The notes under the pieces were generated by a model. That model was given only the letters and a program-made list of their open reading frames with translations. It did no database searches and was not told the origin of the DNA. From a virus, in the IMG/VR virus record IMGVR_UViG_3300033233_000036, positions 4,187 to 68,186 of that record: 64,000 nt of DNA; one strand, written 5' to 3'. Both the position numbers and the translations under genes were made by a program. Shown here piece after piece: positions 57,495 to 59,482 of this stretch. Every line of letters begins with the position of its first letter. The stretch's first letter is position 1.

Positions 57495-57709
57495 TTAACA
57501 ATTCCATGCTCTCAATGATTTATTAATTCTTGAATCGGGATCCCGTGCAGTTTTTGCCGAGGTTAGTTTATCTTTCATACCTTTCATACGAGAGCAAAAT
57601 GATGCCCTGCGTGGATTTCCAACTTTTTTTGAAGGTGATTTTAAATCACTACCAGGATTTTCTTTTTCGTAACTGCGACGGCCCTTTTCATTCAGTCCGC
57701 CGCTTGGTG
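57495..57709 (-). CDS. C-terminal module reached by -1 frameshift from the 57692-59482 ORF
   Basis: GGLNEKGR...RRASFCSRM...SRINKSLRAWNC; the frame has only a TTG start; G_GGA_AAG site at the junction. Confidence 0.75.
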
Positions 57710-59482
57710 CTTTCCCGCTTTTCTTTGCCAAGCAGCAACCTCTTCTATTGTTGGTTTTTTTGTAACTTCAGTTTCTCCAATTACTCCAATATTGAGAAGA
57801 TAATTCTTTCTTCTTTTTTCTTTATCTGGATCAAAAACAATTGCAAGAGATTCATCTACAAAATTTTCTTTTACTGATTTTGCTTGCGGTGTTGACTGCC
57901 CTTTACGATTTGTATTAGTTCTATCAGTACCTCTCCATCCTTGGACTTGAGATGCAGTCGCTTCACCTTTTCTTGGGCCTCTAGTCTTTAGTATAGTAAT
58001 CTTTGGACTTTCTAATTTTGAAGTTGATTTTTTTGGTTTTGTTCTTTCTGAAGAGCTTCTAAGTGTTTTTACACCACCTCTATCTTCTTTGTATCTACCA
58101 AGAACTGCTTCTTCAATTTCATTTTCTTCTCTTGCAAGAACCATTGGTTTAGTTGGATCAATTCTTGAAGGCATATATGCATTTAATAATGCACCTGGAT
58201 ATACTTTATTGATTGCACTTTCAACTTCTTTTCTGGATGGAATTGTGGGAGTTGAGAAGAAGATTTGAAGTTTATAAGTTGATCCGTGCCAGGTTAAAAT
58301 AATTGTATAAGTTCTTCCATATTGTTGAATCTTATCAATATTTTCTTTGACACAGTTAGGAACCATTCTCTTTACTTTTTTCTTCATACCAACTTGTTTA
58401 TATCCAACCCAGCAAGCTTCAGAAACTTCTTCTTCACTTGACATATAATCTGCTGCAGTATCAATAAAGTCTGCTGCTCTGGTAATCTTTGATTGAACCC
58501 AAGCAGGAATCTGCTGATCACTTTTTTTAATTTTACTTCTTAAAATATTAATTGATCTTTCAATTTGATCAAATTCAACTCTTGACATATATCCTTCTTC
58601 ATCTTTCTTCTTTCCAGAAGCAATTTCCTTATGATCCTCTGGAAAAAACTCTTCAGACTTATTACCCCAGTTCTTAGCACCTTTTTGACGACACTTGACA
58701 AGTGCTCCAGATGCATATGCACTAGGCCAAACATCATAACGAGCCTTTACCTTATTATAACAGGCGTCTTTTTTACCACTACCTTTACTCTTTGCGTCTG
58801 TTCCTTCTTGCATTTTCTTTTTTCCTTGACAATGAGCTCTTTGAGAAAATCCTTTAGGATTATCACAATCTATAGATCTTTTATATTTATCACTCCAACC
58901 TTCCTTAACATCAGTTGAGACGTATGTTGGTTTTGCAGCTCCTGACTTTAATTGTTGTCCAGGATCTGCTGATTTCTTTCTTCTCGATGCAGATAATCTT
59001 TCTGACTTTGTCATACTTGTTCTTTTTGATGAAGAGACACACTTTGGCGTTCCTTCTCCTGATTCATCACTTGCACAGGTTCCACCAGTCACTACATTTA
59101 CCCAACCAGGCTTTCCATCCTTAGATCTCGATCCTTTGAACCACTGATGAAGATTACCCTCCTTTACTTGTTCTACTTTTTTCAAACGAGTGTAGTAATC
59201 TGGTTTTTCATCAACATGTTGGAGTGCAGTGATTCTTGCACCCGACTTACTTGTAGTATGTTCACCTTCAACTTTGGTGCCCATCTTCACCTGTTTCGCG
59301 ATTGTATCTGAAGAAACCTTATGTTTCTTTGCAATCTCTTCAGGTGACTTATATGGTTTGACTGGGCCCTTAGGATCTCTTTCTTCTTTCATAGAACAGT
59401 CATCAATTCCATGTTTAGGGCACATTTTACCTTTTGGTGTCTTATTGCATTTAGCTGGCGTACACCCACAATGTTCTAACAT
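57692..59482 (-). CDS. Modular Lys/Cys-rich late polyprotein, probably head-internal
   Basis: About ten short modules separated by VKE/MQE/VSE/IEE; ATAAATA upstream. Confidence 0.75.
   Translation of the reverse strand: MLEHCGCTPAKCNKTPKGKMCPKHGIDDCSMKEERDPKGPVKPYKSPEEIAKKHKVSSDTIAKQVKMGTKVEGEHTTSKSGARITALQHVDEKPDYYTRLKKVEQVKEGNLHQWFKGSRSKDGKPGWVNVVTGGTCASDESGEGTPKCVSSSKRTSMTKSERLSASRRKKSADPGQQLKSGAAKPTYVSTDVKEGWSDKYKRSIDCDNPKGFSQRAHCQGKKKMQEGTDAKSKGSGKKDACYNKVKARYDVWPSAYASGALVKCRQKGAKNWGNKSEEFFPEDHKEIASGKKKDEEGYMSRVEFDQIERSINILRSKIKKSDQQIPAWVQSKITRAADFIDTAADYMSSEEEVSEACWVGYKQVGMKKKVKRMVPNCVKENIDKIQQYGRTYTIILTWHGSTYKLQIFFSTPTIPSRKEVESAINKVYPGALLNAYMPSRIDPTKPMVLAREENEIEEAVLGRYKEDRGGVKTLRSSSERTKPKKSTSKLESPKITILKTRGPRKGEATASQVQGWRGTDRTNTNRKGQSTPQAKSVKENFVDESLAIVFDPDKEKRRKNYLLNIGVIGETEVTKKPTIEEVAAWQRKAGKHQAAD

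Follow-up and report, generated by a model that had tools for sequence, protein, structure and literature searches.

Organization of the gene end

The DNA analysed here is a 64-kb stretch, referred to below as the window, of a 68-kb IMG/VR virus fragment (IMGVR_UViG_3300033233_000036), the completeness of which was estimated at 36%. The subject of this study is a gene for a modular basic protein on its minus strand, the end of which carries a putative programmed -1 ribosomal frameshift site. Standard decoding of this gene yields a protein of 596 amino acids (aa) from the 0-frame open reading frame (ORF) at 57692..59482 (minus strand, as are all features of the gene given below). The ORF ends GCG GGA AAG CAC CAA GCG GCG GAC TGA, with the stop codon five codons past a heptamer, GGGAAAG (57716-57710), which reads G_GGA_AAG in the 0-frame register and has the X_XXY_YYZ form of a slippery site (57710..57716). 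The heptamer is followed by the spacer CACCAA (57704..57709) and by a GC-rich hairpin (57674..57704), inside which the TGA (57694-57692) is located, 15 nucleotides (nt) past the heptamer. The core of the hairpin in the window consists of seven pairs, GCGGCGG (57703-57697) with CCGTCGC (57681-57675), at a distance of 6 nt from the heptamer. In the register of the relatives described below, the spacer is 5 nt and the helix 11 base pairs (bp) long, with the 5' arm at 57704-57694, the loop at 57693-57685, and the 3' arm at 57684-57674. The original prediction, which had read a frameshift site into this sequence, named the ORF end, the heptamer and its register, the 6-nt spacer, and a 7-bp GC-rich stem, and each was found where it had been placed. 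The stem was borne out as seven contiguous pairs in the window, but it does not represent the family, since most relatives form 11 bp after a 5-nt spacer, of which the window forms 7 + 2.

In the -1 frame, the sequence from the heptamer onwards (57495..57716) is open for 73 codons up to a stop codon at 57497-57495 and encodes the DUF6321 end module, a peptide that begins GK APSGGLNEKGRRSY and ends WNC. A shift at the heptamer would join 591 residues of the 0 frame to 71 residues of the -1 frame, and the two predicted products of 596 and 662 aa agree with the sizes (596 and about 662 aa) proposed previously. Before the heptamer, 17 codons are open in the -1 frame. Among them, the TTG at 57731 (57729..57731), behind an AAGAGG string that ends 7 nt upstream, is the sole ATG, GTG, or TTG and the only candidate for a separate start; this point and the continuation of the module in the -1 frame, both of which had been predicted, were confirmed in the window sequence.

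The GC content of the 50 nt around the site was 0.58, compared with 0.33 for the window, and the hairpin arms use codons that are rare in the long ORFs of the window (AGC, 3% of Ser; GGC, 7% of Gly; CTG, 4% of Leu; CGC, 4% of Arg; and, in frame 0, GCG, 4% of Ala). A 57-nt stretch folded at -15.5 kcal/mol (z = -2.56), a value that was matched by 4 of 200 dinucleotide shuffles. Furthermore, when codons were resampled synonymously with the window's own codon usage, the native -14.0 kcal/mol of the 50 nt past the heptamer was reached in 23 of 5000 resamplings. The hairpin signal is more than chance. A comparison of 57450-57850 with Rfam gave best scores of 10-12 bits, far from the gathering cutoffs of 45-87, and all of these were with unrelated families.

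Homology across the frame break

Two domains were recognized in the gene, one in each frame. DUF5661 (PF18905) matched residues 47-105 of the 596-aa ORF with 45.1 bits (cutoff 27), and DUF6321 (PF19846) matched the -1 frame with 81.7 bits (cutoff 28.5; E = 6e-23) over profile positions 1-72 of 72. In addition, two families of unknown function, phrog_727 and phrog_3477, extend over both ORFs: their front parts align with the 596-aa ORF and their ends with the 78-aa -1-frame ORF. A first comparison covered 36 loci besides the window; 11 had no match to the module, and all 25 module-bearing loci read continuously through the junction. The marine-type in-frame relatives have the form ..E-x-AAW-[QT]-[RK]-K-x-GK-N-x-x-GGLNEKGRKSY.. 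in this region. The window fits this consensus as far as GK when read in frame 0 and again from GGLN when read in frame -1, and the number of residues between them is unchanged; the frame change must therefore lie within about 15 nt starting at the heptamer. Relative to an in-frame gene, the window lacks one base. Judged by these alignments, the two ORFs correspond to parts of what is one protein in the relatives.

Proteins that end in DUF6321 in frame include PSSM2_123 of P-SSM2, ORF_115 of S-TIM4, the 'virion protein' of S-SCSM1, and WJZ48406 of DSL-LC02. They share with the gene studied here the end module (85-89% protein identity for the marine type and 56% for the DSL-LC02 type), a similar modular basic N-terminal part, and a locus near gp16/gp17. 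In contrast to it, they are continuous and have neither G_GGA_AAG nor the hairpin, and they carry Arg-Lys where the frame-broken sequences carry Arg-Arg. Most relatives have the module fused in frame, and every copy of the protein carries it.

The N-terminal part of the protein is a chain of short basic modules containing Cys, which are shuffled among the relatives, and in the window the N-terminal 570 aa belong to the DSL-LC02 type. The resemblance to DSL-LC02 is lost at about 57773, past ..NYLLNIGVIGE and shortly before the linker to the module, and resemblance to marine-type modules is seen from about 57748-57724 on. This switch places a recombination border at about 57748-57773 (minus strand), and therefore the linker, the cassette of heptamer and hairpin, and the module were swapped in as a unit.

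Presence of the frame break in the DNA

A base dropped in the GC-rich stretch during sequencing or assembly would produce the same picture, and the window does come from a metagenome-assembled fragment of low estimated completeness; moreover, one relative (L169) shows multiple indels of an error-like kind at this place. The allele was checked in contigs of four runs that were compared with 57200-58200, a comparison in which rare variants would be hidden. The X2 contig (1585 nt, depth 50, possible source sample) covered 57200-58200 with 0 differences and 0 gaps, and the X8 contig (1044 nt, depth 5, not flagged as the source) covered 57200-58114, also with 0 differences and 0 gaps. The low-depth X9 and X11 contigs end at 57677 and 57671, 15-40 nt short of the site, and are neutral with regard to the allele; these ends could be due to low coverage or to a strain variant. 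All sampled 31-mers of 57200-58200 were present in seven runs, and the runs that contain the gene stretch are lake-water and sediment metagenomes.

Because the contigs of two runs span the site without any difference, the break is not an assembly slip, and the one-base frame break is a real allele. No extra base, which the original prediction had named as the mark of an assembly error, was found in the contigs of these two runs. Against an artefact there is also the fact that six other diverged contigs are broken at the same place, and that a very similar hairpin was assembled in frame in another contig (L053). A sequencing or assembly error is accordingly almost certainly not the cause of the break.

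Conservation of the break, the heptamer, and the hairpin

IMG/VR was scanned for Ala-Ala-Trp codons together with GGLNEKG codons at three spacings. The in-frame spacing was found in at least 120 contigs, the spacing one base short in 5, and the spacing one base long in 1. The last of these (L169:2036-2092, minus strand, in a contig of 177,686 nt) is without the heptamer, and it contains at least two indels within 40 nt such that all three frames are traversed; it is probably an error-rich assembly. A scan of metagenomes with the heptamer and GGLNEKG returned 11 contigs, of which 2 were contigs already among the IMG/VR matches, 1 was a new frame-broken contig (L176), and 8 were in-frame contigs with GGG AAA G in the reading frame. 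In total, seven distinct frame-broken sequences were obtained, namely the window and six others, two of which (L039 and L041) are nearly identical.

All seven have [T/G]CG GGA AAG with an invariant heptamer, followed by the 5-nt spacer and the helix; GCG precedes GGA in the window, and TCG is the alternative in the set. A 0-frame TGA or TAA occurs 15 nt past the heptamer in every one of them. The helix of the family, AGCGGCGGNCU / AGGNCGYCGCU, has 11 pairs in most sequences and 7 + 2 in the window and L038. Its 3' arm consists of Arg-Arg codons (CGY CGC), where the in-frame relatives have Arg-Lys. Any X_XXY_YYZ heptamer at the Gly-Lys codons was present in only 4 of 110 distinct in-frame sequences, versus 7 of 7 frame-broken ones. 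Likewise, the minimum free energy (MFE) of the 50 nt past the site ranged from -14.0 to -20.7 kcal/mol in the frame-broken sequences, compared with a mean of -6.7 kcal/mol (sd 3.5) in the in-frame sequences, 3 of 110 of which folded at -14.0 or lower. Fisher tests gave very small p values, which take no account of shared ancestry.

These sequences come from clearly different genomes. The large terminase proteins of the frame-broken loci are 67-75% identical to that of the window, and the N-terminal parts of the frame-broken genes vary in length and module order. The comparison shows that diverged phages have retained the break along with the heptamer and the hairpin, and the alignment of homologous loci, which had been proposed as a check, bore this out in the six contigs other than the window.

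One in-frame sequence resembles the frame-broken type. L053 (6701-6955, plus strand; heptamer near 6736) has GCG GGA AAG, the same hairpin (MFE -16.9 kcal/mol), and Arg-Arg, with a spacer that contains one extra base; ribosomes shifting to the -1 frame there would meet a TGA one codon further on. This sequence may represent either the ancestral condition or a reversion from the frame-broken type.

Selection on the module and possible separate starts

The 73 codons of the -1 frame were compared pairwise among the frame-broken sequences. The ratio of non-synonymous to synonymous substitution rates (dN/dS) was 0.02-0.15, with dS of 0.6-2.0 and dN of 0.02-0.15; the exception was the nearly identical pair L039/L041, whose ratio of 0.28 derives from two differences. 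For instance, 28.8 synonymous changes separate L042 from L176, against 3.2 non-synonymous ones. The result was unchanged when the cassette codons were removed. These values indicate strong purifying selection on the module as read in the -1 frame; by this measure, the module is still translated.

Translation of the module might also be achieved with two separate genes, one for the 596-aa protein and one for a 78-aa DUF6321 protein that starts at the TTG at 57731, without any frameshift. A TTG and an AAGAGG string resembling a Shine-Dalgarno (SD) sequence are indeed present in the window. Among the other frame-broken sequences, L039 and L041 have a TTG, and L042 and L176 have an ATG behind AAGGAG. 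Small free-standing DUF6321 proteins also exist in other phages (L171, L173, L175, L180, and L177-L179), where the protein has its own ATG 14-29 codons before Gly-Lys and GGG AAA G sits in the reading frame, and phrog_4689, a profile of 99 positions, fits such a stand-alone module. However, L038 and L040 have only 2 open -1-frame codons before the heptamer, and no ATG, GTG, or TTG among them; a -1-frame stop lies between the position of the TTG and the heptamer, yet the module is under purifying selection. In these two sequences, therefore, a ribosome can enter the frame of the module only by shifting at the heptamer. The start-like codons have another explanation as well. The -1-frame TTG or ATG arises because the conserved Ala-Ala-Trp codons are read in that frame, and the purine-rich string arises from the Glu codons of the Glu-x-Ala-Ala-Trp stretch; the same start-like and purine-rich strings occur in the in-frame relatives. 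Furthermore, a separate start leaves unexplained the invariant heptamer with the rare TCG or GCG codon, the hairpin, and the fixed stop at +15. Two separate genes are consequently an improbable explanation.

The break could alternatively be a tolerated deletion of one base in a module that is dispensable or decaying, in which case the slippery appearance would be a coincidence of the Gly-Lys codons. Consistent with this, the window is exactly one base short relative to the in-frame relatives, a slippery heptamer occurs by chance at Gly-Lys in the 4 of 110 in-frame sequences mentioned above, and the closest whole-gene relatives are continuous. A decaying module is difficult to reconcile with the same break in seven sequences that are separated, except for L039/L041, by dS of 0.6-2.0, and with a frame that has stayed open for 73 codons at the low dN/dS given above. 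Nor would it account for the heptamer together with a strong hairpin in 7 of 7, and the allele itself is stable, being unchanged in the contigs of two runs and accompanied by all sampled words in seven runs. We consider this explanation very improbable, even more so than that of two separate genes.

Frameshifting at the heptamer remains the reading that best fits these data, and several observations weigh against it. The helix shows no two-sided compensatory change (0 of 11 pairs) and lies within coding sequence. The 5' arm never varies; across six distinct sequences, pairing holds in 62 of 66 cells, and four pairs have changes, all of them one-sided, so that the helix is supported by conservation and by these one-sided changes. 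Third-position variation in the cassette is only marginally lower than elsewhere (8 of 16 codons versus 34 of 43, p = 0.05). Five of the seven frame-broken sequences have an upstream -1-frame TTG or ATG, some of them behind an SD-like string, and in these five the module may be initiated separately. The closest whole-gene relatives (DSL-LC02, L005, and L006) are continuous and without the stem; these three carry a different end-module subtype. Conservation of the stem in homologous loci, for which the original prediction had asked, held for the six frame-broken contigs and failed for these three. The frame-broken sequences do not form one clade in a FastTree tree built from the 171 nt past the cassette in 77 sequences of equal length (40 with other module lengths were left out), and L040 groups with the in-frame L054. 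The cassette may have had one origin with recombination or several origins, and the seven sequences do not count as seven independent events. No cultured phage was found to have the cassette: the best matches of the L039 cassette region in the phage collection were at most 76% identical and of the in-frame types, and megablast with 95 nt of the cassette gave no match. Finally, the shiftiness of G_GGA_AAG is known from E. coli and lambda, not from cyanobacteria.

Proposed mechanism and comparison with known systems

With these points taken into account, we consider it highly probable that expression of the DUF6321 module depends on programmed -1 ribosomal frameshifting at G_GGA_AAG, giving products of 596 and 662 aa, and the programmed shift put forward in the original prediction is supported by the comparative sequence evidence. 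In this mechanism, most ribosomes would read through G_GGA_AAG and stop five codons later, producing the 596-aa protein without the end module. The GC-rich hairpin 5-6 nt downstream would stall a fraction of the ribosomes, in which the Gly and Lys tRNAs would slip from GGA_AAG back to GGG_AAA. The shifted ribosomes would then add the 71 residues of DUF6321 in the -1 frame to form the 662-aa protein, and the site would set the number of protein copies that carry the last module. From the sequences we infer that slippage takes place at some frequency and that the ratio of the two products is important.

Two other ways of entering the -1 frame were considered and rejected. Transcriptional slippage was discarded on the grounds that the longest conserved homopolymer at the site is only A3 or G3. 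Termination-reinitiation was discarded on the grounds that the ATG right after the TGA in the window is in the 0 frame and not in the frame of the module.

As a separate observation, the window contains a cluster of 9 tRNA genes (5985-8933, minus strand); it has no tRNA-Lys gene, and it includes tRNA-Gly(UCC), the reader of the GGA of the slippery site.

The site appears to belong to the canonical -1 frameshift sites, in which a stable RNA structure follows after a spacer of about 5-9 nt, and to resemble lambda G/GT in kind, with a hairpin in addition. In lambda G/GT, the shift occurs at G_GGA_AAG and the minor product amounts to about 4%, as given in an excerpt of PMC3296357. The same heptamer is described as highly shift-prone in E. 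coli in an excerpt of PMC5009743, which also describes the lambda G/GT products as absent from virions. As far as these excerpts go, the two systems are alike in that the heptamer reads Gly-Lys in both frames, in that a 0-frame stop lies just downstream, and in that a short major product is accompanied by a C-terminally extended minor one, which is a prediction in the present case. They differ in that the gene described here belongs to a T4-like myovirus, in which it sits between the terminase genes and not, as a lambda-type tail-chaperone gene pair does, between the major tail and tape-measure genes, in that its domains are DUF5661 and DUF6321, in that a strong hairpin follows the site, and in that an in-frame homolog is named 'virion protein'. 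No tail-chaperone family was found among the PHROG or Pfam matches of the gene, and the gene is not a lambda-type tail assembly chaperone.

Among tailed phages, the best-known cases of programmed -1 frameshifting concern tail assembly chaperones. Gene 10A/10B of phage T7 also has a -1 shift, close to the end of a gene for a virion protein, which yields a minor form extended at the C-terminus; neither the gene nor the slippery sequence nor the type of phage is that of the present case.

A search of open-access and bioRxiv full text, in which matches on cyanophage frameshifts were judged by title and the start of the abstract, returned no description of a frameshift for this gene or for DUF6321. 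By this search, a textbook mechanism is found in a gene and a domain that are new for it. Automatic gene calling breaks this gene in two or shortens it in such phages. The conserved site would mean that the amount of DUF6321 per particle is under selection, which would offer a handle on a widespread cyanophage domain, and the in-frame and frame-broken relatives constitute a natural pair for testing the role of the module.

A further, tentative idea, which we regard as rather doubtful, is that the cassette of heptamer and hairpin belongs to the DUF6321 module, moves with it by recombination between modular proteins, and serves as a dose switch that can evolve. If the spacer has 5 nt, the module would be carried only by the shifted minority of copies. 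With one extra base, as in L053, it would be carried by most copies, and a shift would end the protein at once at the TGA of the -1 frame. One-base indels in the spacer would then flip lineages between a module on every copy and a module on few copies.

Surroundings and possible role of the gene

The window comes from an uncultured T4-like cyanophage. All of its long ORFs are on the minus strand, and the encoded T4-type proteins include the neck proteins gp13/gp14, gp15, gp16, gp17, and the sheath, portal, protease, scaffold, and major head proteins. The nearest isolate is Synechococcus phage DSL-LC02, with 82% nucleotide identity over 74% of an 8-kb stretch, and the more distant matches are all T4-like cyanophages and pelagiphages.

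The frameshift gene lies between the small terminase gene gp16 (TerS; 59509-59922) and the large terminase gene gp17 (TerL; 54714-56366), both on the minus strand and identified by PHROG and Pfam matches. It is separated from gp17 by an ORF of 348 aa (56447-57493, minus strand), for which weak tail-fibre PHROG matches and a sub-threshold BclA_C match were obtained. In the other frame-broken loci, gp17 follows directly after the module, unlike in the window with its intervening ORF. Upstream, gp16 was present in all three frame-broken relatives whose loci reach that far (L174, L042, and L176).

Several features bear on the role of the protein. The in-frame homolog in S-SCSM1 carries the GenBank product name 'virion protein', and for this phage, an excerpt of PMC9602691 gives 45 virion proteins found by mass spectrometry. 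A Glu stands directly before [GVSA]-A-A-W in 75 of 104 distinct in-frame relatives, and V, I, L, or M is found two residues earlier in 59; for processing by a T4-type prohead protease, sites of the form hydrophobic-x-Glu would be expected where modules meet. The window also contains a gene for a gp21-like T4-type prohead protease (48505-49149, minus strand). On this basis the protein would be a candidate virion component or internal head component. The shuffling of modules, the Glu before the module, and the prohead protease gene would fit a protein that is packaged in the head and cut into modules, which is a candidate role; for the head-type polyprotein named in the original prediction, these features and the name of the S-SCSM1 homolog would be indirect support.

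The structure of the module was predicted with AlphaFold from an in-frame relative (L013; 85 aa, 56-row alignment). The model was helical, with a mean pLDDT (predicted local distance difference test) score of 78.4. Foldseek gave no match to it in the PDB at E <= 0.001. In a wide VIA-align comparison of the model, the highest Z was 4.3, reached over about 40 residues, and only generic helical hairpins were matched; the model's matches in BFVD were DUF6321 proteins only.

Related patterns in unrelated contigs

A 20-nt pattern consisting of the heptamer, 3 free bases, and CAAGCGGCGG was also observed in unrelated contigs, at the ends of short ORFs that continue in the -1 frame. Such sites lie at L043:3658-3677, L044:1725-1744 (also in L045 and L048), and L047:4595-4614. 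By a rough estimate, several matches to its 17 fixed bases are expected by chance in the collection, and the match in L046 looks like a chance one. In L047, the 0-frame ORF matched a PHROG annotated as 'tail protein' (7e-11) and is followed by a long ORF, an arrangement that resembles the frameshift site of a tail chaperone.

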